From: a virus
Direction: 5' to 3' (one strand)
Virus record (IMG/VR): IMGVR_UViG_3300037010_000365
Span: 1-64,000 of that record
Length of the DNA stretch: 64,000 bases
Part shown: one piece after another, positions 3,171-55,710 of the stretch
How positions within the stretch are numbered: position 1 is the stretch's first letter
Layout: each line of letters opens with the position of its first letter
Position numbers and translations under genes: made by a program
The notes under the pieces: generated by a model
The model's database searches: none
Told to the model about the DNA's origin: nothing
The model's input: only the letters and a program-made list of their open reading frames with translations

Positions 3171-5186
3171 ATGGCAAAGTTTAGAATTACAAATACTAAT
3201 GATAATTCGGTAGAGTTAGCGTTAGATAGTACAGTATTAGCCAATGTTAAGCAAGGCGAGTTCATTGCTAAGACAGTAGCTACAGTAGCAAATTTAATGA
3301 GTACACCAACAGTAGGCGCGTTGAATGTATTGAACTACTATTCAGGCAGTGAAGGTGGTGGGGTATTTTACTGGGATAGTAATAAGTTAAAAAGTGAACA
3401 TAACGGTGGTACTGTTATTGATCCTACTAAAGTATTTCCTAGTGACTGGAATGATCAAGTACAATTGACTAACTGGTTTACTTGTAATACTGCTGGTAGT
3501 GGTTGTTGGGTAAGGCAACATCAGAACAAATTAGACACAGCTTGGTTTGGTTTAACCAGCAGTACACCTGCTATTGCTGTAAAGATAGGGTTTGAAAAAA
3601 TGTTATCTGTTTGTGCACAGGATAATGGTATTTGGTATGACCCTAAATACAGTATATTTGTATCACAAAATCTGAATACAACAGGGGTTACTATTATATT
3701 ACCACCTATTGGTGCTAATAGAAATGGGTTGACAATTACAGGAAAAGGGTTTGGTGGGTTTAATAAATCCGATAATACTTTTATGTTCGATGCTCAACAG
3801 GATAATTCTGGAAACCTTACATTTGATAGTCTGACATTTAAGGGTGTTAACAATGCACCAGTAGCTAATAGACCTAAAATTTTTAATGGTAATAGAATTA
3901 TTAATACTTTAACGCAAAACTGTATATTTATGTTTGTAGGTAAAATATGGGAAGCATTACCACTTCCTCAAGAACTAACTACAAGTGGTTATTTGCAATC
4001 TATCACATCAATTAATGATTGGGTACTACAAAATTCTGACATAGCCATTCATGCTGGAGCGCTATATAATTGCGCTTGGACAAGATTGTCTATGGAAGAG
4101 GCTAGTAGTGCTGATTGTGCTTTTATGAAAATTGAAGGTGGTCCTTACTACAATAGTACAAATATGACAGTTATTAGAGATAGCTTGATAGAAGGACTTA
4201 ACTACCAAGGTTTACCTTTTAGTAATAGTGTAATCTATATTGGCTCAAATGGTGGAATGTTAAGTATTGAAAACTTATACACTGAAAAAAATACCTCTAA
4301 TGACATTACAATTGCTCATCCTACTCAAATTATAAAAATTTCGGGATTAAACTTTGGAAATGGAGATTTTGTTGCTGCTCCAAGAATACGTATACTTGGT
4401 AACCTCGGTAATATAAGTATTACAGGTTGCAGAGGTAATACAGCGCCTGTAGTTGATTTAACAGAGGTAACACAACCTGGTGACGCAGTCTACGAATGTA
4501 ATATTAAAAATAATTATTCGCTGACAAAATACATCAATATAGTAAGCATAAGCAATGATACTGTTAACGGTATTTTAACATTCAATCTTGACCCAACATC
4601 TGTAGATTTTATAGGTAACTTTAGGGTTGGCGAATATATTTCTGTAGATAGTTTGAACAACTTTGCATCAATTAACAATAGAGCTGTAATTGTTGATAGT
4701 GTAGGTGATACATTTTTTACAGCAAAGGTTATTACAACTGATGTTTACTCATCTGGTGGACGTGTTAGTAAGTTATTTCCGTGGGTAATATCCTATCAAA
4801 CACCGCCAGTAACTGCTGGGATGATGACAGGGTATTTCCCGTTTGAAGATAAAAATGCGGCTTCTGTTATAGTTTATAAAGATGTTAAATTTTACATGCA
4901 GCAATATAGGACTGGGTTTGTCTACACAAGCAACGCTTACTACAACTTACCTCCTGGGGCTGTTCAAACAGTTACATTTGTTATGCCGTTTGAAACATAC
5001 CAGAGTGACCAGTACGCTGCATATATAACTAACCCAAATAACAGAGAGATTATAAGCATTGATAATGTAGGGATTACTAACAGGGTTGCATCGGTTGTAC
5101 TTCGGAATACTTCTGCTTCTTTGACGGCAGGTGGTTCAATTACTACTTCTTTGACTAAAGAATCGGCTCTTACTATAACAGGTTAA
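3171..5186 (+). CDS. Tailspike / putative beta-helix polysaccharide depolymerase
   Basis: GGGVFYWD..HNGGTVIDP..GSGCWVR tailspike N-domain followed by an Asn/Gly/Ile-rich beta-helix-like body. Confidence 0.6.
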   Translation: MAKFRITNTNDNSVELALDSTVLANVKQGEFIAKTVATVANLMSTPTVGALNVLNYYSGSEGGGVFYWDSNKLKSEHNGGTVIDPTKVFPSDWNDQVQLTNWFTCNTAGSGCWVRQHQNKLDTAWFGLTSSTPAIAVKIGFEKMLSVCAQDNGIWYDPKYSIFVSQNLNTTGVTIILPPIGANRNGLTITGKGFGGFNKSDNTFMFDAQQDNSGNLTFDSLTFKGVNNAPVANRPKIFNGNRIINTLTQNCIFMFVGKIWEALPLPQELTTSGYLQSITSINDWVLQNSDIAIHAGALYNCAWTRLSMEEASSADCAFMKIEGGPYYNSTNMTVIRDSLIEGLNYQGLPFSNSVIYIGSNGGMLSIENLYTEKNTSNDITIAHPTQIIKISGLNFGNGDFVAAPRIRILGNLGNISITGCRGNTAPVVDLTEVTQPGDAVYECNIKNNYSLTKYINIVSISNDTVNGILTFNLDPTSVDFIGNFRVGEYISVDSLNNFASINNRAVIVDSVGDTFFTAKVITTDVYSSGGRVSKLFPWVISYQTPPVTAGMMTGYFPFEDKNAASVIVYKDVKFYMQQYRTGFVYTSNAYYNLPPGAVQTVTFVMPFETYQSDQYAAYITNPNNREIISIDNVGITNRVASVVLRNTSASLTAGGSITTSLTKESALTITG

Positions 5187-5331
5187 TTTATGATTTTTTA
5201 TCATTCATGCTATATACAAAGCTTATTTCACTTATTAGCTGATTTTAACAATCCAGCTGCAAAGTATGCAGCTGGGAGCAGTTTCGTAAGTATGTATAAA
5301 ATCTTTACAAGATAAATTTGGTGGTTGAGAT

Positions 5332-5766
5332 ATGACATTTCCATATTTAACTATTTACACTGATAATCTACCTCCAAACGCAAATGGTAGTACCAATGCA
5401 TTTGTAGTAAGAATCCGATCTGCATATAAAGATGATATCGGTGTTCATAACCATGAGTACACACATGTTAAACAATGGTATAAAATGTTAACTATTTGGT
5501 TGATGTTTTCTGCGTTACTAGTTGCAAGTACCTATGAAAGCTTAGGCTATGCTTTAGCACCAGCAGCTGTTGCTGGTATTGGATTACATAGTTTATTATA
5601 TCTATTCATACGTAGTTATAGACTAGAAGCTGAAGCTCAGGCTTATGCTGAACAAGTTAAAGCAGGTGCTAGCTTAGATGATATGGCAAATGATCTTGCA
5701 GGGGATTCCTACAAACTTGGTATCACGCAAGAACAAGCCAAAGAGGAGATTCAACGATGGTTGTAA
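5332..5766 (+). CDS. Membrane protein with HExxH motif (paralog of 9625-10065)
   Basis: HNHEYTHVKQW, two hydrophobic segments, LEAEAQAY. Confidence 0.55.
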   Translation: MTFPYLTIYTDNLPPNANGSTNAFVVRIRSAYKDDIGVHNHEYTHVKQWYKMLTIWLMFSALLVASTYESLGYALAPAAVAGIGLHSLLYLFIRSYRLEAEAQAYAEQVKAGASLDDMANDLAGDSYKLGITQEQAKEEIQRWL

Positions 5767-6364
5767 CATTGTTGGTTATGCCAGCAATTGCTGTATTAGT
5801 GTTTATACACAACGCAAACATGGCATAAAGAAATGTTTAATACTAAATATGCAGACGTAAGTCGCGCTTATGTCACTGATATTACAATTGATAAACTAGT
5901 ATTAGCCTCCATCGGGTACAGATGCAAAGCAGTTGTAGCTAGCTGCTTTGGCTTATGACGATTTATCGGCTGATGCCAATGTATACCAAAAGTTGCAAAA
6001 TGTGCTGATTATCCAATAAGGACAAAAGCGGATCTTTCATCAGTGAATCTGCGCAAATAGTCACGAGCGGTAACATACCCAACGTGTGTTTAAACGTCAG
6101 CGCAACAGTATTAATAGTGTTAAGCACACCCGTAATGACTACGATTGTCTAGTTTATTTCAATTACGGATAAGCAATCAATCGAACGTTTATAAAACATA
6201 ACATTAGCTTATGCAAATAATGGCGATCTATATGTTTGCGGTTATAGCGAGCGGGTAAGTCTGATATATATATAGTTATGATATGTCAGTTAGAGTATCG
6301 GTTCAAGCGGAAATACCAAAAGCTAAACTAATAAATACACAATAAGATAACATAAGGGATATTC

Positions 6365-7156
6365 ATGTCAGCAGTATTAACCAACGAATTCCAAGCTAAT
6401 ATTCTATCATCGTTTATTAGTACATACCTATCAGCAACAAGTGGTAACGTAACGTACTTATTTTTTGGTAAAGCCTCAAGCTGGCCTGCTGACGTTAACG
6501 GCAAAGCAGAAACCGATACTGGGTTTCTGCTTCCTATAGTAAACCCGTTAACAGCGCCTGCTGATTTTAGAGCAAATACACCAATTGCAGGCGTTAAGAT
6601 TAATAGCGCTGATGTTTCGCCTGCTATTCCTCGTGTTAACTGGGCAACAAACATGACGTATCCAAAAGGTCAAGTTGTTATTACGAATGAGTGGAATGTT
6701 TACTTAGCAACAACTAATATTGTGTCAAACACAATACCAACATCGACTGATTATACGCAAACTTTAAATGGATGGAAGTTTCAATATAAAATTGCAGATT
6801 CTGATTGGTTTACAAAATTCGTCACTAGTGCATGGATTCCTGTTCCGTTAACGCTCATATCTGTTCCAGATACAAACCCAAATCCGAATGCGTTATATGA
6901 ATGTAATGCATCTAGTATTATAATTTATAAAGTATTCAATGCTACTTCAGTTTCTCTTTCAACTTTGTCTACATACAGACAAATAGCGTTATGGGGATCT
7001 ATTAAATCACCATCAGCTGCAAATGTTACCGCTGATTTAGTAACATTGGCTGATATCAACCCGAGCACAGGTACAATTATATATTGTGATAATAGACATG
7101 AAACTGAGCGATATGAAGGTGTTGATGAAGAATTTAAAATTGTGATAGGTATCTAA
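6365..7156 (+). CDS. Baseplate wedge subunit, gp8-like
   Basis: YLFFGKASSW, AIPRVNW, WKFQYKI, FVTSAWIPVP, YRQIAL, GTIIYCDNR, EEFKIVI match gp8 motifs. Confidence 0.75.
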   Translation: MSAVLTNEFQANILSSFISTYLSATSGNVTYLFFGKASSWPADVNGKAETDTGFLLPIVNPLTAPADFRANTPIAGVKINSADVSPAIPRVNWATNMTYPKGQVVITNEWNVYLATTNIVSNTIPTSTDYTQTLNGWKFQYKIADSDWFTKFVTSAWIPVPLTLISVPDTNPNPNALYECNASSIIIYKVFNATSVSLSTLSTYRQIALWGSIKSPSAANVTADLVTLADINPSTGTIIYCDNRHETERYEGVDEEFKIVIGI

Positions 7157-7157
7157 T

Positions 7158-8828
7158 ATGGAATTTACTTTCGACAGAGCAGATTATCAAGTTGACGGGA
7201 CAGTTGAGTCTATTGTTGCTTGGAAGAATAAATACAACTCATTTTTAGATAAAATGGGAAATATTGTTGATGACACTGATATTACGTTTGTTAAACCAGT
7301 ATTAGCGCCTACGGCAGCCGCAGGCACAAATACAACTCAGTTAGCAACTACTGCTTTTGTAACAACTTCACCAGTATTCACTGGTACACCTACAGCGCCA
7401 ACTGCAGCTGCTGGTACTAGTACAACTCAGTTAGCAACAACTGCTTTTGTTACAGCAGCTGATAACCTATCTGTTAAAAAAGGTGATTTTTTACTTGGCG
7501 CAACCGCCCCTTACATTTCTGATGCCAATGTAATTACAACTACACAGTGGAACTCAGTTGGTGCCGTATGGAATGGTTCTCCATTTTCAGGAACAGTTGG
7601 TTCTAACCAAGGATACTTATTTACACAAGTGTGGGAAAACGTCAACTATAGGTTGCAGACATTCTACAATGTTAACTACAGCTTTGTATCAGCTTGGCGT
7701 AGAATGGATAACGGTGCGTGGTCTTCTTGGGTGTTTGACTGGACATATGGCACTTCAAACGGTCACGTCCTAATCGGCACTACTACAGATAATGGTGTTG
7801 ATAAGTTGCAGGTTAACGGTAGTATTAGTGCTGCAACAGCCTCTGCTGGGACAAACACTACACAGTTAGCCACAACTGCATTTGTTGTAGGTGAGAAAGG
7901 TGGTAGACGAAACTACTTAATCAATGGTAACTTCGATAAGTGGGATTATGGTGCAAGCCAGACTGTGACTGGGTACTATTCTGATAATAGATGGATGAGT
8001 TACTCTACAGGCTCAACAAAGACGCATTCACAAGTGGTATGCGGTGATACAGAAAGAGCATTATTTAATGCAGTGTACTTTAGTAGAACAATTGTCAATA
8101 GTGTAGCTGGTTCAAGTAATTATACTTGTAAAGTACAACGAATTGAGAACGTTGCGCTATTAGCTGGAAAAACTGTAACTTTATCGTTTTGGGCAAAAGC
8201 TGACGGTAATAAGAATATTGCTATCCAAATTGGTCAAGGGTTAGGATCAGGTGGAACCCCTTCTGGAGGTGGTGGTACTGCTATTTCGATAGTACCGTTA
8301 ACTACAACTTGGCAGAAGAATACTGTTACCATGACTCTTCCATCTATTGTAGGTAAAACGTTAGGTACTGACGGTATACAGACTACTTTTAGTATACTGT
8401 ATTTTTTCTTTGAGGCAGCGTTTATATCAACTCTTGGCCAACAATCAGGCATGTTCGATATCGCTCAAGTAAAACTTGAAGACGGTTCAGTTGCTACTAA
8501 TGGTTGGCATCCTTATGATGGTGAGTTTGGTGGAGAAGTTGAGGCTTGTGCGAGATACCTAAACAAGTTTACTGGTTTAAGTGGTAACTTTGGTGCTTAT
8601 GCTCAAGGTGCATACATGACTTATCAATTGAGTTACCCAACAATGAGGACAGTACCAAGTATAACTTCTAGTTTGTCTAATACTACTTACGCCAGTGCTG
8701 AGAATCTTCACTTGGATACGCAAACTACCAATACAGCCAGATTAGTCTTTGATGCAACAGCAGCAGCTACTAATGCAAACTTTGTTATGGGTTCAGGTGA
8801 CTACTTTATGCTTTCAGCAGAACTATAA
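7158..8828 (+). CDS. Tail fibre protein with C-terminal carbohydrate-binding-like domain
   Basis: APTAAAGTNTTQLATTAFV shaft repeats; NYLINGNFDKW..TLSFWAKAD..QVKLEDGSVAT domain. Confidence 0.75.
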   Translation: MEFTFDRADYQVDGTVESIVAWKNKYNSFLDKMGNIVDDTDITFVKPVLAPTAAAGTNTTQLATTAFVTTSPVFTGTPTAPTAAAGTSTTQLATTAFVTAADNLSVKKGDFLLGATAPYISDANVITTTQWNSVGAVWNGSPFSGTVGSNQGYLFTQVWENVNYRLQTFYNVNYSFVSAWRRMDNGAWSSWVFDWTYGTSNGHVLIGTTTDNGVDKLQVNGSISAATASAGTNTTQLATTAFVVGEKGGRRNYLINGNFDKWDYGASQTVTGYYSDNRWMSYSTGSTKTHSQVVCGDTERALFNAVYFSRTIVNSVAGSSNYTCKVQRIENVALLAGKTVTLSFWAKADGNKNIAIQIGQGLGSGGTPSGGGGTAISIVPLTTTWQKNTVTMTLPSIVGKTLGTDGIQTTFSILYFFFEAAFISTLGQQSGMFDIAQVKLEDGSVATNGWHPYDGEFGGEVEACARYLNKFTGLSGNFGAYAQGAYMTYQLSYPTMRTVPSITSSLSNTTYASAENLHLDTQTTNTARLVFDATAAATNANFVMGSGDYFMLSAEL

Positions 8829-28409: not shown

Positions 28410-28982
28410 TTAAGCAACTAATAATTTAAGTACTTCGCTATCGCTAATACCTGTTAATAATTCTTTTAATGCATTATGTTGTCTAAACGTGTTAATTTGA
28501 AATTCATATGATTTATCTATTTCATCCAGTGTAGTTAAGCAGTTAGATTTGCTTAACGATAATAACAGGTCATTATAAAGAATTAACCCTATTCTGTTGA
28601 AATTTATCGGTAGTACACAGCTTTGTTCAAGTGACCAAAATCCGCTCTTGTAATCAGTTTTGTGTTCTAATGAAACACCAAATAAAAATTGTATTGTTTC
28701 ATCGTTTAGCTGTATGAAGTATGGAACTCTAACTAATTTAATATCATTAACTGTGCAGTATTCGGATAACAATGTGTCTCGCAATTGTGTTTTTGCCGAT
28801 GTGTAGTGATGATACCCGTCAAATTCAATCAGAGTATCTATTTTACCATCAACTATCACAGCGTAATCAATTATCATCCGTTTATTCTTAAACTTAATAG
28901 AATATTGAGACTCAATAACGCATTGGCGGTATAGTTTAATAAGAATAAGCGCTAACGATTCCTCAGTAAGGTAATCTTTCAT
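28410..28982 (-). CDS. Free-standing PD-(D/E)xK / Vsr-like endonuclease (putative homing endonuclease)
   Basis: IIDYA..LIEFDGYHHY..RD..YCTVNDIKLVRVPY; the only sizeable - strand gene. Confidence 0.65.
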   Translation of the reverse strand: MKDYLTEESLALILIKLYRQCVIESQYSIKFKNKRMIIDYAVIVDGKIDTLIEFDGYHHYTSAKTQLRDTLLSEYCTVNDIKLVRVPYFIQLNDETIQFLFGVSLEHKTDYKSGFWSLEQSCVLPINFNRIGLILYNDLLLSLSKSNCLTTLDEIDKSYEFQINTFRQHNALKELLTGISDSEVLKLLVA

Positions 28983-29066: not shown

Positions 29067-29501
29067 ATGGATCTTACACTCGATCAAATCTTATCTGAGT
29101 CTGAAAAAGACTTATATGTCGATCACTTAGGTGACATCGGAAAACAAGTTGCTCAGCAGTCTAACATATTCTCTAAATGGCTAAGAATTACAAAAAAAGA
29201 AACCCTAAAGCTTAGAGCTCTTGATATTGAAATGGAAGCGCTAAAAGCTGAGTTGTGGTTGTATTATACAGGTAAGGCAGATCCTAGCGTGTATCGTGAC
29301 CATCCAATGGATACGAGATTCTTGAAGTCTGAATCAAAAGAAGCAATTAATGCAGATCCAAGATATAAAAAGCTAAACATTAAAATAACTGTTCAATCTG
29401 AAACAGTTGATACATTGGAAAAAATTCTAGATCGTGTTAAATCAAGAGACTTCCAATTAAAGAATATTATTGAATGGAAGCGTTTTGAGTCTGGCGTATA
29501 A
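29067..29501 (+). CDS. uvsY: Recombination mediator UvsY
   Basis: FSKWL..LWLYYTGKADP..INADP..RDFQLKNIIEWKRFESG. Confidence 0.9.
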   Translation: MDLTLDQILSESEKDLYVDHLGDIGKQVAQQSNIFSKWLRITKKETLKLRALDIEMEALKAELWLYYTGKADPSVYRDHPMDTRFLKSESKEAINADPRYKKLNIKITVQSETVDTLEKILDRVKSRDFQLKNIIEWKRFESGV

Positions 29502-29528
29502 ATATCGAACAACACTTAGGTAAAAATA

Positions 29529-30554
29529 ATGTTATTAATTAACTCAGCAAAAGAAATTAACTGGTTAGCTAGCTTTCAAGTTAGATCGCCAACGGGTAAG
29601 CACATTGATATATCACAGTATATTCAACAAGTTAACATTCCATCTATTTCGTTGATGCCGTTGGATACAGCTGCTCCTAGAGGTATTACTAAATTCTACG
29701 GGACACAGACTCAATACGGTTCTTTTGATGTTCAGTTTTTAATGGATGAAAACTGGGAAATCTATACGTTGCTTTTATCATTTCTATTTAACATGTCTAG
29801 ATCAAGCAAACCTAATGAAGTTTTTGGGTCAGTAACTGTTATTGCCGTTGATTCGTATCAGGTACCTAAATTTAGAATTGAGTTTGATAATCTAGTGCTT
29901 AGTTCTATAACAGATATTCAATTGCAGACGTCTAACACAAATCAGCCGTTAATTGTTAACTGTCAATTTGATTTTAGCATGATTAAGTTTAGAAAAATAT
30001 CAACTGCAGGTGATTTAGGTATTGGTGCAGGTATTAATACTAATGGATATTACCTTGAAGATGGTTCATGGACTGGGATTGATTCAAGTTTAATAAGAAA
30101 CAAATATTTAACATATGAAGGTAGATTAATTAACTCGGCTACAGGTGCTGCTCAATGGTCAGTTGATTTGTTAGAACAAGATAGCTATACGGTATTTATC
30201 CCAAAAAATACAGTTAAATTTGTAGAAGGTTTAACTGAAATTGAAATAGCTTGCGGAGTTGTTGTTACTGTCAATAATATACCTAAAAATAATGGATTGT
30301 TCAGTCGAACTGTTACTGTTCTTAAAGGCGGTGTAAAAGTTTTAACCAATAACTTCATATTAGAGTCATGTGTAGATATAAATACATTTAATAAAAAATA
30401 TTCATCCGCTGATGGTGTTATTATTGAATTCACTTACACATTAGATCCAGCTGGGTACTCGATTAGCTTCAATATACACGATCAGTTTAATCCTAATATG
30501 ACATCAGGCGCTGAATATATTCAAAGCAATATAATTGATGGTTGTGTTAAATAA
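29529..30554 (+). CDS. Tail completion protein gp3-like with long C-terminal extension
   Basis: QQVNIPSISL..YGSFDVQFLMDENWEIY in the first ~155 aa; late promoter at 29497. Confidence 0.55.
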   Translation: MLLINSAKEINWLASFQVRSPTGKHIDISQYIQQVNIPSISLMPLDTAAPRGITKFYGTQTQYGSFDVQFLMDENWEIYTLLLSFLFNMSRSSKPNEVFGSVTVIAVDSYQVPKFRIEFDNLVLSSITDIQLQTSNTNQPLIVNCQFDFSMIKFRKISTAGDLGIGAGINTNGYYLEDGSWTGIDSSLIRNKYLTYEGRLINSATGAAQWSVDLLEQDSYTVFIPKNTVKFVEGLTEIEIACGVVVTVNNIPKNNGLFSRTVTVLKGGVKVLTNNFILESCVDINTFNKKYSSADGVIIEFTYTLDPAGYSISFNIHDQFNPNMTSGAEYIQSNIIDGCVK

Positions 30555-31161: not shown

Positions 31162-33081
31162 ATGGCATATTTAGATTCTCCTGGTATTGCTATAAAAGAA
31201 GTTGATAAATCTTCTTATGTTGGCGGTAACAGTTCTACTACTGGTGGTTATGCTGGTGCGTTTGGTTGGGGTCCTGTATTAGTACCTACCATCATATCAA
31301 ATCAAACAGATTTGATTCGCACATTTGGTGGCCCTGTTACTGGTTACAATCAGCAAGATTTTTACTCTGTTGCTTACTTTTTAAAGTATTCTAATGCTTG
31401 TTATGTTACTCGTGTAACAGGACCAGACGCTAAGAACGCGGTAGCAATGAAAGATAATTCAACAACTGTTGGTAAAGAAGTTGTGATTAACTCATCTCAA
31501 GCTTTTGAGACCACTTTCACTAACTCAACTAGCGTTGACTTTGCTGCTAGATACCCTGGCTCTTTAGGTAATGGTATTGAAATTATCATCATTGATTCAA
31601 TTTCATTTACATCATCCAAATACAAGAACTTGTTCACAGGTGCACCTACTGGTACTGAACTTCACGTATTATTATTGAAGAATGGTTCTGTTCTTGAAAA
31701 GTACGAATATTTGAATGCTTTACCTGGTACTAAAAAATCAGATGGCACAGTTGCATACTATGTTGAAGTAATTAATACCCAATCTAATTACATTTACGTC
31801 TTGAAAGAAACAGGCGCTTGTGATTGCATACTGTCTGGCGGTACGCTAGGTGCAACTTTTGCTACATATAAAATATCATCTGTTACATATGCGGCAAGTA
31901 TTTACCCCGGTATTGGTAATAACACTGTAATTTACTTAGTTGATAGTGCAAACTACGCTGCTTTGAGTACTGATGTTAAGTCACATTTGGTTGGCGCGCC
32001 TGCAGTTGATCAGTGCGCTGTGGTTGTTTATACTAATGGTTTCTTCACTGAAGTATTTGAAGCTTTGGACAAGTTATCTACATCTGCTAACTATTACGTA
32101 ACCCAGTTTAACGCTCAATCATCTACAGCGCATTTAATGTCACCTGTTGACTTCACAGTAGCTGCTCAAACAGTTATGACATTAACTGGCGCAGTTGGTG
32201 ATGTTCCAGTTGGTGATTCAGTTGTTAACGGTTATAACATTATGGCTGATGCTGATACTTATGATATTAGCTTGATGTTTGCTGGATCAAATACTACAGT
32301 GTGTCAAACTGCTGTTGTTTCTATTGCAGAATCTCGCAAGTTTACAGTTGGTTTTGTCAGCCCTCAGTTTAGTTCATGTAAGTTAGGCGGTTCTGCTGCT
32401 TTAACTGCAGTGTTAGCTGATCGTCAAGCAATTTACTCTTCAAGTTATGGATTCATGGATTCTAACTGGGGTAAGGTTTACGATCCAATCAATAAGAACT
32501 CTTTCTGGATGGCTATGAATCCTGTATCTGCTGGTCTTCAAGCACAGGTTGAAAATCAGCGTGAAGCTTGGTATGTTGGTATGGGTACCACTTATGGTAG
32601 AATCTCAGGCATTCAAGCGTTAGCATGGGAACAGAGTCAAGTTATTCGTGATGCTTTGTACAAGTCTCAAATCAATCCATTATGCACGTTTAAAAACGAA
32701 GGCATTTTGTTATTTGGTTCTAAGACATTACAAGTTAAGCCTAGCGCATTTGATCGTTTGAATGTACGTCGTTTATTCATTGTAATTGAAAAAGCTGTTG
32801 GTAAAACTGCTAGAGCTCTTATTGGTGAACTTAACACTGATCAAACTCAGCGTTCTGTAGTTAACTCGATTACACCGTTTATGCGTGATATCAAAGCTAA
32901 GCAAGGTTGTTATGATTTTGCTATTGTTTGTGATGCCACGAATAACACGCCACAAGTTATTAACACTAATGGTATTGCAATTGGTTTGTACATCAAGCCT
33001 ACTAAAAACATTGACTTTGTTTATGTTGATATGGTTGCAGTTAGCTCTGGTGTTTCTTTCCAAGAGATCATCGGCAAATAA
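31162..33081 (+). CDS. gp18: Tail sheath protein gp18
   Basis: SPGIAIKEVD, FGWGP, ARYPGSLGN, RDALYKSQINP, SAFDRLNVRRLF, CDATNNTPQVI. Confidence 0.95.
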   Translation: MAYLDSPGIAIKEVDKSSYVGGNSSTTGGYAGAFGWGPVLVPTIISNQTDLIRTFGGPVTGYNQQDFYSVAYFLKYSNACYVTRVTGPDAKNAVAMKDNSTTVGKEVVINSSQAFETTFTNSTSVDFAARYPGSLGNGIEIIIIDSISFTSSKYKNLFTGAPTGTELHVLLLKNGSVLEKYEYLNALPGTKKSDGTVAYYVEVINTQSNYIYVLKETGACDCILSGGTLGATFATYKISSVTYAASIYPGIGNNTVIYLVDSANYAALSTDVKSHLVGAPAVDQCAVVVYTNGFFTEVFEALDKLSTSANYYVTQFNAQSSTAHLMSPVDFTVAAQTVMTLTGAVGDVPVGDSVVNGYNIMADADTYDISLMFAGSNTTVCQTAVVSIAESRKFTVGFVSPQFSSCKLGGSAALTAVLADRQAIYSSSYGFMDSNWGKVYDPINKNSFWMAMNPVSAGLQAQVENQREAWYVGMGTTYGRISGIQALAWEQSQVIRDALYKSQINPLCTFKNEGILLFGSKTLQVKPSAFDRLNVRRLFIVIEKAVGKTARALIGELNTDQTQRSVVNSITPFMRDIKAKQGCYDFAIVCDATNNTPQVINTNGIAIGLYIKPTKNIDFVYVDMVAVSSGVSFQEIIGK

Positions 33082-33099
33082 ATCTATATTCGATTATGA

Positions 33100-33126
33100 A
33101 AAATGGGAGCATACGCTCCCATTTTT
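33100..33126 (+). terminator. Intrinsic terminator after gp18
   Basis: AAAATGGGAGC-ATAC-GCTCCCATTTTT. Confidence 0.85.
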
Positions 33127-33174
33127 GTTATTCGTTAACTAATCTATAGTGTTATAATTAGCTCTTGTGTATCT

Positions 33175-33252
33175 AGAAGTTCACTGGTTTAATTCAAAAA
33201 GAAAAGATATAGATTTTATCATATATTTTGTTTGGATTAAACCTGAGTGATT
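33175..33252 (+). repeat. Dispersed ~75-nt element, copy 1 (core AAAAAGAAAAGATATAGATT inside inverted repeats)
   Basis: Near-identical to 35674-35752 and to the reverse complement of 55631-55710. Confidence 0.85.
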
Positions 33253-33940
33253 CAGATAATTTTAACAGTTCGGCCATTATATACCGGTGTGGCCTTGCGA
33301 GAAAGTTTCAATGATGTTCTGTACATTGTCGGATTACGAATACATCTACTCCCTTTTCTTTCCGCTGGATAATGAACCGGTTATTAATTAAAGTAATAAT
33401 AAACAGATAACGCTGTTGAAAATTAATCTAATTAATAATTCGGTATTAATCCAGTTACCTCTAGTAAAAGGTAATCGCAGAAGCGAAGGAAATACTCAGT
33501 TTCTTTTAGTGATTAAACACTACCAGTTCATTCCCGTAGAACTGTCTTTCCTGATAACTTTTTAAGGCGTTATCACCAAATCAATATTAATTTCATGTAA
33601 GTCCATTACACTACTCATAACATCAACAGTAAAGAATACGTATACTCAATACATGAAACTACGACTATCTTAGGTATTCGTTTCATTGGGCTGTCTACCC
33701 GAACCATCCTGTCTTACTAGGATATCCATCGTCGCTGGGTGCAAAGGGGAGCAGTGCCAGCATTTTATTTTTAAGTTTTGGTCTACAATAGAAGTATGTT
33801 TAATTTAGATAAAGGGATATAGAATCCTGCATTATCAGAGTTCTAGACGTATCATAGCATAGTCAGATAGTAACTCAACCGTATGGATTGGTGTTTAACG
33901 GTTCCTAATTTGCATTTAACTTGGGTATGTTGTTTGTATT
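33250..33940 (-). ncRNA. Candidate large structured non-coding RNA (or promoter-primed replication origin)
   Basis: No ORF of 60 aa or more; many hairpins; leftward early and late promoters immediately upstream. Confidence 0.45.
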
Positions 33941-33943
33941 TTC

Positions 33944-34110
33944 TATTTATAGAATTCTATTTATAACACATATCAGTCTAAAAGTAAACAACTAAATGAT
34001 AAAAAGTTAAAATAAACTTGTTGTTCGGTTGACACAACTATAGAGTAATAAATAATTAATGAATAGAATCTTATTTATACATTATAACATGAATTAGACT
34101 AAAAGTAAAC
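33944..34110 (-). promoter_or_regulatory. Leftward promoter cluster: two early-type TTTACT-N17-TATAA(A/T) and three TATAAATA late boxes
   Basis: TATTTATA at 33944, 33958 and 34072; AGTAAA at 33983 and 34104, each 17 nt from a -10 hexamer; lies in a ~55-nt tandem duplication. Confidence 0.7.
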
Positions 34111-34138
34111 AACTAAATTATAAAAAGTTAAAAATAAA

Positions 34139-35653
34139 ATGCCAGACATCATAATACACTACTATGACTCAACCTACATAAAGCTGGAGTTTCCTAATCG
34201 GTATTCCATAGCAGATGAGGTGCATCAGAACTTTAGTTTTTTCGCAGAAGGATACAAGTTTCATCCAAAGTACAAGATGAAAGTATGGGACGGAAAGATA
34301 AAGTTGTTTGATAAAGGTAGATCTCTGTTGCCGTATGGATTGCTTAGCGATCTAGTTTCATTTGCTGCTAAACAAAATTATACGGTTAAAGTACCTAAAG
34401 AATTAACACTACAGTCTAAAGTAACAGTAGAAGTTCTTGAAGAATTCTGTAGGTCAATTCTAAAGCTACCATTTGAGCCTAGAGATTATCAGTTAGAAGC
34501 AGCAGTACAGTGTATCAGAAATGGAAGACGTTTAGTTGTAAGTCCTACCGGGTCTGGTAAGAGTGTGATTCAGTATATCATTATTCAATATCTAACATTA
34601 GTTGAAGGTTTTGATCGAATATTGCTTACTGTACCTACGACAGGGTTAGTAACTCAGATCTATAATGATTTTAAAGACTATGCTCAGAACGTAGAATTTA
34701 ATGAAGCTGATTATCTGACAATTCCAAACAAACAGAATATTAAGTTTAAAGCTGACGCTAAAGTTATTATATCTACCTGGCAATCAATACAAAAACAAGA
34801 TATCGAATATTTTGAAAATTTTGATGTACTGATGTGTGATGAAGTGCATACTATGGCAGCAGATGTTAGTCAACAAATATCGTTAAAATCAAAAAACGTA
34901 TCTGTAAAATTAGGTATGACAGCAACTTTGTCTAATACTAAGTTGGGTGAAATGCCGTTGATTGGTCTTTTTGGACCTATCTTCAAAACAACAACAACTG
35001 CAGACTTGATAGGACAAGGAATGTTAGCTAAGATAGAAATCAAAGCTATCCAGATGTCATTTCCTAATATATCTAATAGAGCTAGAATTATTGACTATGC
35101 TGAAGAGATCAGTATATTAACAAATTCAGTAGAACGAACCGAGTTTATTGCTAAATTAGCTGGAAAGTTAAAAGGAAATACATTAGTACTGTTTAATCAT
35201 ATTGAACATGGTACGTCTATATTCAATAACATTAAAAAGCTATATCCTGAAAAGAAAGTATTCTATATAGCCGGATCAAGTTCAAAACAAGAAAGAGAAG
35301 ATGTTAGAGTAGTTGCAGAAAAAAACGATGACGTGATAATTGTAGCTGGATATGCTGTATTCAGTACTGGTGTTAACATTAAAAATCTACATAACTTAAT
35401 GTTTGCAGCACCAAGCAAGTCTATGATTAGAATATTACAGTCAATCGGTCGAGTATTAAGATTACATAATGGTAAAGACTGCGCTGTTGTATATGACTTG
35501 TACGACATATTTGGCGATGATCAAGCTAAAGCTAAAAACTATGGGTTTAAACACTTTATTGAAAGATACAAAATTTATAATGATGTAAAAATGGAATGCT
35601 CTATCGTAGAAGGACCTAAGTTTATTACAACTGATCCAGGTATTAGCGACTAG
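34139..35653 (+). CDS. uvsW: UvsW RNA-DNA helicase
   Basis: FSFFAEGYKFHPKYK..WDGKI, PRDYQ, SPTGSGKS, DEVH, FSTGVNIKNLHN, LQSIGRVLR. Confidence 0.95.
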   Translation: MPDIIIHYYDSTYIKLEFPNRYSIADEVHQNFSFFAEGYKFHPKYKMKVWDGKIKLFDKGRSLLPYGLLSDLVSFAAKQNYTVKVPKELTLQSKVTVEVLEEFCRSILKLPFEPRDYQLEAAVQCIRNGRRLVVSPTGSGKSVIQYIIIQYLTLVEGFDRILLTVPTTGLVTQIYNDFKDYAQNVEFNEADYLTIPNKQNIKFKADAKVIISTWQSIQKQDIEYFENFDVLMCDEVHTMAADVSQQISLKSKNVSVKLGMTATLSNTKLGEMPLIGLFGPIFKTTTTADLIGQGMLAKIEIKAIQMSFPNISNRARIIDYAEEISILTNSVERTEFIAKLAGKLKGNTLVLFNHIEHGTSIFNNIKKLYPEKKVFYIAGSSSKQEREDVRVVAEKNDDVIIVAGYAVFSTGVNIKNLHNLMFAAPSKSMIRILQSIGRVLRLHNGKDCAVVYDLYDIFGDDQAKAKNYGFKHFIERYKIYNDVKMECSIVEGPKFITTDPGISD

Positions 35654-35673: not shown

Positions 35674-35752
35674 AGAAGTTCACAGGTTTAATCCAAAAAG
35701 AAAAGATATAGATTTTATCATCTAGTGTGATTATAATTAAACCTGAGTGATT
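35674..35752 (+). repeat. Dispersed ~75-nt element, copy 2
   Basis: AGAAGTTCACAGGTTTAATCCAAAAAGAAAAGATATAGATTTTATCA..ATTAAACCTGAGTGATT. Confidence 0.85.
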
Positions 35753-35770
35753 TTAAAAAATAATGAAAAC

Positions 35771-35801
35771 ATGTTTACTTTTATATAAAACTATGTTATA
35801 A
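35771..35801 (+). promoter_or_regulatory. Early-type promoter GTTTACTT-N-TATAAT
   Basis: TTTACT, 17-nt spacer, TATAAT before gp55. Confidence 0.65.
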
Positions 35802-35833
35802 TAGAATAATTACACATGTAAGGAATAGATTTT

Positions 35834-44654: not shown

Positions 44655-44730
44655 CCTCCGGTAGCTCAACTAGTAGAGCAGTTCTCTCATAAAGGACCGG
44701 TTGCAGGGGCAGAGCCTGCCTGGAGGACCA
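44655..44730 (+). tRNA. tRNA-CAT, probably Ile2 (lysidine substrate); atypical T loop GGCAGAG
   Basis: CCTCCGG/CTGGAGG acceptor, GTTCT-CTCATAA-AGGAC, GCAGG/CCTGC T stem, ACCA end; next to tilS. Confidence 0.8.
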
Positions 44731-46072: not shown

Positions 46073-46099
46073 TCAGCTATAAAGGCAAAAGATTAACAA

Positions 46100-46865
46100 T
46101 AAACAGTCGATTCGATTGATATTATATTATTAATCAAATCGACACTCTCGAGATAATGCAACCTTTACGAGGTTCGAGAGATAAAGTAGCACAATCCATG
46201 ACGTGTCTTATGGTATAGTAGAAGAGTTTAATTCTCTTTCTAGTTTCGGTGACAGACATAATGACAAACGTTTCAAGCCTGGAGTTGCGCGAAAACTAAT
46301 AGCATAGAGTTTGGATGCCTCGATAGGTGCTCGTAACACCGGTTACGTGAAAATTGTGATACTCCGACCCGAAGTATATCTAATCTATGATGTTTATTTG
46401 TTTTTCAGGGAAATCCAGAAAAACATTAAATGGCGCAAGGAAATAACAGCTACTGCTGTCGCCGAATAAACTTCTTATCAGATATATAGATACTAGTGAA
46501 GATGGATTTGATCACCATCAACGCCGGAAGGGTGCATAGTTCAAAATCGCGAGATTACGAAAAAACTTGTTGTATAGTAAATGCTGTATAGAAACGTTAG
46601 ACCCACAGTCTAAAAGTCTGCTTTAGCAACAGTTTCATGGCGACGGTTATGAAATAGTTTAACCAAAATACAACAGTCAACTGGAAAGACTTAGAAAATA
46701 GTACCAGCGTGAAATGCGAATGTTGCAGACGAAACGTGCAAGCTGGAGACATAACCAGCATCAACATGAAAGAGTAGGACATGAGGTATACTCATGAGAT
46801 ACGCATAAATTAATGAAGATAGCGCTAAAGCGTTCTTCGAGTATGTTTGTAATAACTTCAAAACC
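46100..46865 (+). ncRNA. Candidate giant structured ncRNA in the tRNA region (GOLLD/ROOL size class)
   Basis: About 770 nt with no + strand ORF; more than 15 visible hairpins, several nested; strand inferred from context. Confidence 0.5.
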
Positions 46866-46875
46866 AATAACATAA

Positions 46876-46978
46876 AATAATTGTTTACTTTTCCATCAAG
46901 ATAGTATATAATTATTACAAGTTAAGGAAGCTAACAGCATAAATTAGAAATTATTTTGGTTTAATTAAATGCTTCCTG
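46876..46978 (+). repeat. Early promoter + stem-loop cassette, family A copy 3
   Basis: Near-identical to 44423-44522. Confidence 0.85.
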
Positions 46979-46984
46979 TATAAG

Positions 46985-47082
46985 TTAACTTTGTCGGCTA
47001 GTATCTCAACCGCCTTCTAAGCGGTCGTTAATCGAGTAATTGGAGTATGTAGGTTCGAACCCTATCTAGCCGACAAAGTTAA
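46985..47082 (+). ncRNA. D-armless tRNA-Arg(TCT)-like RNA with a 17-bp terminal stem
   Basis: TTAACTTTGTCGGCTAG/CTAGCCGACAAAGTTAA; ACCGC-CTTCTAA-GCGGT; GTAGG-TTCGAAC-CCTAT. Confidence 0.65.
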
Positions 47083-47248
47083 TTTGAAATGAAAATATGA
47101 GAATTATACGGGATATTGTGGCTATATTAGCGATAGATAACCGAATATTATTTCATAAACCCATTTGATTCTCACACAACTCTAGTTATAATGATTACAC
47201 ACTGCGGTGCCACTCGAAAATCTACTAATCCTGAAAGGAACCTATATC

Positions 47249-55630: not shown

Positions 55631-55710
55631 CCAGCAATCCCGGCTTAATCCAATCAAATTAGATAATAGAATCTATATCTTTTCTTTTTTGGTTAAGCCA
55701 GAGTGCTAGA
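55631..55710 (-). repeat. Dispersed ~75-nt element, copy 3 (inverted)
   Basis: Reverse complement contains GGCTTAACC-AAAAAAGAAAAGATATAGATT-..GGATTAAGCC. Confidence 0.75.

Follow-up and report, generated by a model that had tools for sequence, protein, structure and literature searches.

The gap between the tail sheath gene and the helicase gene uvsW of the virus studied here is more plausibly a regulatory RNA locus than an ornate RNA. Our preferred reading, to which we give a probability of roughly 0.4, is that it is a leftward non-coding transcription unit that would double as a control region for uvsW, placed between the late tail genes and the uvsW/55/47/46 block, and that an untranslated leftward RNA of ~0.85-0.97 kb, made early and late, would act with a helix masking the uvsW start codon to control that gene. 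The strongest non-random feature of the gap, missed in the preliminary description of this DNA, is a 20-nt segment of which 19 bases are complementary to the uvsW start region.

Gene setting of the gap

The window analysed here is a 64,000-nt stretch from the beginning of an IMG/VR virus contig of 82 kb, whose completeness is estimated at ~46%. Judged by gene content and order, the source phage is a distant T4-like myovirus. The T4-like gene set in the window includes a gp19-like tube gene and the tail sheath gene, together with a putative gp55-like late sigma factor gene, whose sole basis is an NPFAYFTQ motif (Pfam returned no family for it), and candidate gp47 and gp46 ORFs assigned from ORF length and order. 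The best uvsW match among cultured phages was ~40% identical and came from cyanophages. From the sheath stop to the uvsW start the gap measures 1,057 bp, and uvsW adjoins the ORF-free tract just as the preliminary description had it. The accompanying statement that nearly everything else in the window is transcribed rightward holds in general, with one exception, a leftward 190-aa gene. The borders of the gap and this gene are as follows.

28410-28982, minus strand: 190-aa gene, the sole clear leftward protein gene in the window
31162-33081, plus strand: tail sheath gene
33099-33126, both strands: bidirectional intrinsic terminator, 12-bp stem with T-runs on either side
33127..33953, minus strand: ORF-free body of the predicted leftward transcript, with no Pfam family, convincing PHROG or called protein
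34139-35653, plus strand: uvsW helicase gene, 504 aa

The 190-aa protein has a weak DUF2726 nuclease-like match (E 0.021). Its gene lies between the bidirectional terminator of the major capsid gene and the next late gene and has a promoter near 29048-29019 (GTTTATTTAT-N14-TATAAT); it resembles an inserted cassette and is possibly a mobile nuclease gene.

Early-type and late-type promoters point leftward into the gap

We scanned the contig for early promoters with a consensus derived from the phage's own DNA (TT[TG]AC[TA]-N16-18-TA[TG]AA[TA]), which gave 21 sites in 82 kb and an extended consensus of GTTTACTTTT-N13/14-TATAAT. Nineteen of these sites lie on the plus strand, 5' of genes or tRNAs, and the two on the minus strand both fall in the gap. 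The latter are exactly the pair already picked out in the preliminary description, and both carry a perfect 10/10 core GTTTACTTTT. The three minus-strand late boxes (TATAAATA) reported with them are likewise present in the gap and are the only copies on that strand of the contig, compared with 16 on the plus strand that mostly stand 30-60 nt before late-gene start codons.

34109..34081, minus strand: P2, early-type promoter, TTTACT (34109-34104), N17, TATAAT (34086-34081), putative start near 34074
34079-34072, minus strand: TATAAATA late-type box, 1 base downstream of the P2 -10
33988..33960, minus strand: P1, early-type promoter and tandem paralogue of P2, TTTACT-N17-TATAAA, putative start near 33953
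33965-33958, minus strand: TATAAATA late-type box that doubles as the P1 -10
33951-33944, minus strand: TATAAATA late-type box, 14 nt from the box at 33965-33958

These five leftward elements are not independent, as P1 and P2 stem from a tandem duplication at a distance of 121 bp (52 nt, 88% identical) and one copy of the late box from a local duplication of 14 nt. When P1 and P2 are aligned, hardly any differences fall in the -35, the -10 or the ~30 nt upstream, and the spacer differs at 5 of 12 positions, which is the pattern expected if both have been kept as working promoters. A third copy of the promoter unit, inverted and decayed, is found at 33798 (GTTTAATTTA-N12-TAGAAT).

The terminator at 33099-33126 lies ~850 nt downstream of the leftward promoters and is predicted to end both the sheath operon and the leftward transcript; its position relative to the promoters gives predicted leftward RNA lengths of ~854 nt for a start at P1 and ~975 nt for one at P2. 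The strong leftward promoters almost certainly transcribe the gap, and the promoter sequences provide good support for an untranslated leftward RNA made from early-type and late-type promoters. We infer that both strands are transcribed.

The coding capacity of the gap is negligible. An absence of ORFs of 60 aa or more had been claimed, and indeed the longest ORF in the gap has 49 aa. Stop codons number ~25 per frame on both strands, a random density in all six frames. Six small gap ORFs were absent from a collection of 15 billion proteins, and gene callers placed no protein in the gap. A hidden or broken gene was rejected on this stop density and on a six-frame Pfam search, with stops read as X, that returned 0 families; a search of PHROGs gave one weak hit (E 0.0099), which spans stops and was treated as noise.

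A distant complement of the uvsW start region

The features that bear on the uvsW start are the two arms of a potential helix and a promoter-like site between them.

33760-33779, plus strand: anti-start arm, GCATTTTATTTTTAAGTTTT, a 19/20 complement of the uvsW start
34029-34056, plus strand: proximal rightward promoter-like site, TTGACA-N16-AATAAT
34123-34142, plus strand: uvsW translation initiation region, AAAAGTTAAAAATAAAATGC, ATG at 34139; doubles as the upstream region of P2

In dinucleotide shuffles of the region, none of 200 reached 19/20 for any inverted repeat, and none of 3000 gave a complement of the uvsW start region above 17/20. Even when up to 3 mismatches are allowed, the 20-mer is found at just two places in the 64 kb. 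Among the 110 gene starts of the contig, uvsW alone has a complement of more than 15/20 within 615 nt upstream. At 54 other uvsW loci the complement reached at most 13/20, so that the helix is absent from distant relatives.

Folding of the plus-strand RNA yields the helix in the minimum-energy structure and in the centroid structure alike, across an arm spacing of 343 nt. Its predicted pair probability is ~1.0 in plus-strand contexts of 431, 701 and 1,071 nt, with 15 of the 20 pairs predicted at probabilities of 0.9-1.0 in three sequence contexts, and the uvsW start region is mostly open in a transcript that starts at 34063. In these computed folds the start codon falls within the helix in long transcripts and not in short ones, as in a structure that sequesters a start site, and the helix is predicted to mask the uvsW start codon in long rightward transcripts.

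The arm sits in the decayed inverted promoter copy, and it matches the 20-mer of P2 at 19/20 positions compared with ~16/20 for the well-kept P1 copy. That an arm within a decayed copy should match P2 better than P1 does suggests that selection acts on the arm-start pairing itself. The 19/20 complement appears to tie the tract to regulation of uvsW on the plus strand. The uvsW gene has no Shine-Dalgarno sequence and only an A-rich leader; AAGGA- or AGGAG-type sites stand 6-10 nt before the start of most genes in the contig.

The proximal promoter-like site is overlapped by a near-late box, AATAAATA, at 34047-34054. It faces P2, and since the putative starts of the two are ~11 bp apart, polymerase footprints imply that P2 and the proximal promoter could not be occupied together and would be mutually exclusive. 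The box AATAAATA has 9 plus-strand copies and 0 on the minus strand, four of them 29-38 nt before start codons, and may be a working late-promoter variant or a mere reflection of the A-rich coding strand. Copies were noted at window positions 6330, 29038, 34047 and 39241 and at contig position 71642. Further upstream on the plus strand, right after the sheath terminator, TGTTATAAT at 33150-33158 resembles the extended -10 of the phage's early promoters, without a good -35. Rightward transcription across the tract could begin at this site; with 5 copies in the window compared with 3 expected, the motif shows no enrichment over chance.

Folding and homology of the predicted leftward RNA

The preliminary description called the gap hairpin-rich and proposed that it encodes a large ncRNA made throughout infection. 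The stems that it listed are all present, the short ones being of a kind common by chance, but the fold beats shuffled sequence only at the terminator, a dispersed repeat element and a palindrome.

33175-33252, plus strand: dispersed stem-loop element of ~75 bp, copy 1, which beats shuffles
35674-35752, plus strand: copy 2 of the same element
55642-55701, minus strand: copy 3 of the same element
33365-33454: AT-rich imperfect palindrome, 42-nt arms 71% complementary around a 6-nt centre
33684-33763, minus strand: GC-rich island, 55% GC compared with 35% for the genome, in the top 0.15% of windows

Compared with dinucleotide shuffles, 150-nt windows were significant only at 33100-33300 and 33350-33499 (z -3 to -6.5), and those across 33500-33950 had z between -2.4 and +1; the palindrome is the sole strongly shuffle-beating fold inside the tract. 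For the 700-nt tract, folding of the minus strand lies at -1.6 SD relative to genome windows of the same size, and that of the plus strand at +0.3 SD. The whole leftward transcript reached z -3.7 (20 shuffles), a value that it owes to the terminator, the repeat element and the palindrome.

The three copies of the stem-loop share a conserved loop core, AAAAGAAAAGATATAGATT(T/C)TAT, and copy 3 carries a compensatory change from GGTTTAA/TTAAACC to GGCTTAA/TTAAGCC. Copy 2 is directly followed by the early promoter of the gp55-like gene, in a PeSL-cassette-like layout.

An Rfam search, proposed with the ncRNA, of positions 32500-34700 at E values up to 10 produced no family match. The best matches were terminator look-alikes (27.7 bits compared with a cutoff of 50), nothing was found in 33250-33950, and no family of Rfam 15, GOLLD, ROOL, group I and II introns, tRNA, tmRNA and 6S included, matched the tract. 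At the gathering score the whole-window search likewise gave nothing in the tract, and ARAGORN found no tRNA or tmRNA there. Elsewhere in the window, tRNA-like genes at 44655-44727 and 46995-47073 scored 42 and 34 bits with the Rfam tRNA model and went unreported by ARAGORN; both sit 3' of repeated units of early promoter plus leader. The tract was without a match in blastn and megablast searches of 50,697 phage records and in exact-pattern scans of IMG/VR and GTDB genomes; blastn and nhmmer searches of fetched loci gave just chance A-rich matches inside gp55 genes. It also shows no similarity to the phage's other ORF-free region (46073-47206). Of the proposed large ncRNA, then, the untranslated leftward transcript stands on its promoter sequences, and the large structured RNA finds no support in Rfam or in folding.

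These results bear on the possibility that the locus makes a stand-alone, trans-acting ncRNA of ~850-975 nt throughout infection, the plus-strand link to uvsW being secondary, which we regard as possible though doubtful. Such an RNA could act as a sponge or decoy in which the single-stranded copy of the uvsW start, AUG included, titrates a translational repressor or ribosomal protein S1; alternatively, it could encode a 22-aa peptide. Beyond the strong early and late promoters and the terminator, it is favoured by the phage's habit of placing the same promoters before RNA genes such as tRNAs, and by the GC island, the sole non-tRNA GC peak in non-coding DNA. On the minus strand of the island a 22-codon ORF (33763..33695) follows the copy of the uvsW start region, which is unpaired in the minus-strand fold, and the minus strand of the tract folds 10 kcal/mol better than the plus strand, opposite to the genome trend. 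However, folding is near background across most of the tract, no Rfam family matches, no homologue was found in the collections searched, and relatives with 51-64% protein identity lack the tract. The 22-codon ORF lacks a Shine-Dalgarno sequence, and its GC-ending codons appear by eye atypical for the phage. A tRNA-like fold of the island was ruled out, the segment forming three small hairpins (z ~ -1).

Stability of the promoter DNA and a possible replication origin

UvsW is the antagonist of the R-loops at T4 origins and switches T4 from origin-dependent to recombination-dependent replication, and the preliminary description offered an R-loop origin as its alternative. The P2/P1 RNA would form a persistent R-loop in AT-rich DNA and prime a leftward leading strand, and UvsW, silenced early by the helix and by promoter occlusion, would later remove the R-loops. 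The DNA of the promoter cluster fits this proposal. Of the whole 82-kb contig, the 100 bp of lowest stability (34039-34138) and the 200 bp richest in AT (33939-34138) both lie here, and the 100 bp downstream of P2 (-108.6 kcal; genome mean -123.3, SD 6.7) are the least stable of the 21 early promoters. Two tandem promoters with an AT-rich region also make up the primary origin of T7. T4 oriE, too, works from an early promoter (PMC3016281).

In other respects the origin fared less well, and we consider it unlikely. Stacked promoters are AT-rich in any case, and the DNA downstream of P1 is of average stability. The GC-skew check suggested for the origin went against it, cumulative skew being monotone with no inflection, and no iterons, tandem repeats or direct-repeat arrays were found at the tract. 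The leftward late boxes are at odds with an origin shut off late. Compared with T4 oriF and oriG, the gap shares promoters followed by very AT-rich DNA and a local switch of the transcribed strand, with tandem promoters as in T7, but its promoters are early-type and not MotA middle-type, it has late boxes and no skew signal, it shows no homology, and the tract covers 1 kb where ~100 bp suffice for a minimal T4 origin.

The sheath-uvsW junction in relatives

Proteins identical to this uvsW product at 85% (P0001) and 97% (P0002) are present in metagenomes; a scan of metagenome contigs returned relatives at no more than 40% identity. In L085, which carries a 51% uvsW relative, three plus-strand genes (144, 229 and 298 aa) separate the sheath gene from uvsW downstream of it, the first two being paralogues of window genes at 29067-30554 and the third gp23-like. 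In L134 and L135, whose sheath is 64% identical, the genes lying between sheath and uvsW are, in this order, one of 512 aa, a gp19-like one and a DUF7487/Mom-like one of 606 aa. The differing genes indicate that the junction is a variable region, in which the tract appears to be the cargo specific to this lineage. The relatives' junctions (L134 5857-9948; L085 3740-6386) hold extra structural paralogues with the gp19-like tube and gp23-like capsid fold.

L085 has repeat families of its own (4170-4570, 5250-5495, 6380-6570 and 8055-8260): AAGATCTTTGAGTTTTTGCAC... occurs after two genes, and TATAGATGTATGTTTTATCATAGT before two genes as well as inverted inside a hairpin after uvsW. No TATAAATA was found on either strand in 16 kb of L085, so the late-promoter motif may differ there.

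A variable junction could also hold the relic of a decayed leftward gene, for example a free-standing nuclease or homing endonuclease, whose promoters have persisted fortuitously or because of a minor effect in cis. The random stop density and the lineage-specific cargo agree with such a relic, as does the layout shared with the 190-aa gene (late gene, bidirectional terminator, leftward cargo, leftward early-type promoter, rightward gene), but it is quite improbable, given that no residual protein similarity was found in any frame with Pfam, PHROGs, tblastn (using the leftward 190-aa protein and the relatives' junction genes) or tblastx (against 183 loci), that phage genomes tend to lose unused DNA, and that two perfect-core promoters, duplicated and conserved while neutral spacer positions diverged, and a retained 19/20 arm argue against simple decay.

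A model for control of uvsW

The reading that we prefer, a leftward transcription unit that controls uvsW, would work as follows. Host RNA polymerase early in infection, and gp55-directed polymerase late, would initiate at P2 and P1 and transcribe leftward to the bidirectional terminator, giving an untranslated, weakly structured RNA of ~0.85-0.97 kb. In rightward transcripts entering from upstream, the arm at 33760-33779 would pair with the uvsW start and hide the AUG, rendering read-through from the late operon untranslatable for uvsW. The gene would be translated only from transcripts initiated between the arms, at the proximal promoter (34029-34056). Leftward polymerases would collide head-on with incoming rightward polymerases, occupancy of P2 would block the facing proximal promoter, and the leftward RNA would be a perfect antisense of the rightward leader. 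The net effect would be to uncouple UvsW synthesis from the heavily transcribed late operon and to set its timing, and it is this regulatory outcome at uvsW that we infer.

Several observations weigh against this model. Rightward read-through may be rare, given the efficient-looking terminator upstream, and the sole candidate for an upstream rightward promoter (TGTTATAAT, 33150) is not above chance. The sign of the effect is ambiguous, as antisense RNA on the arm would open and not close the uvsW start. The 343-nt spacing of the arms far exceeds the T4 examples, and the helix is missing in distant relatives. Moreover, 800 nt of DNA would be superfluous to the model, which leaves the GC island and the palindrome unexplained.

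A more ambitious version, which we hold to be a long shot, is a self-contained timing circuit in which leftward early transcription would prime an R-loop origin or make a decoy RNA of the uvsW start, while occlusion and the helix silence UvsW. If true, an origin or ncRNA would be coupled physically and logically to the gene of its own antagonist.

Comparison with known phage systems and implications

The closest parallels to control of uvsW from the gap are the T4 genes e, soc, 49 and I-TevI, whose start sites are hidden in long transcripts and which are translated from promoters inside the structure (PMC3014915). The gap shares with them a predicted AUG-hiding helix in RNA initiated upstream, a promoter-like site inside the structure, and a gene for which timing is important: in T4, a late promoter drives the synthesis of UvsW, the timing of which controls when origins are shut off (PMC3016281). 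Unlike the T4 leaders, the gap has arms 343 nt apart in place of a local hairpin, a loop that holds two strong opposing promoters and a target gene with no Shine-Dalgarno sequence, and its predicted helix is absent from the 54 other uvsW loci.

Another parallel is the PeSL cassettes of T4-like phages, which are repeated modules of stem-loop and early promoter at the borders of variable regions (PMC2839356, PMC4122927). By layout, the copy at 35674-35802 is alike in that the stem-loop is directly followed by an early promoter, and the tract itself lies between a stem-loop copy and early promoters. At the tract, however, stem-loop and promoters are ~700 bp apart and the promoters are inverted. 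Finally, the gap resembles GOLLD, ROOL and the T4 RNA C and RNA D as an ORF-free, promoter-driven phage locus of a length near that of GOLLD, but differs from them in having no Rfam match, low GC, near-background folding, no neighbouring tRNAs and no conserved family.

Taken together, the locus is real and clearly non-random, and we regard it as a variant of known phage regulatory architectures and not a new kind of system. As the phage is uncultured and the locus lineage-specific, its immediate reach is modest. Replication origins are, to our knowledge, unconserved even among close T4 relatives. According to a 2010 review, T4 had at that time no functionally characterised small regulatory RNA that acts in trans (PMC3014915), and a promoter-driven, gene-free kilobase beside uvsW is a concrete place to seek a T4-type regulatory RNA or origin. 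The most specific new lead is the helix predicted to hide the uvsW start codon, which offers a directly testable idea for how a T4-like phage may set the level or timing of UvsW.
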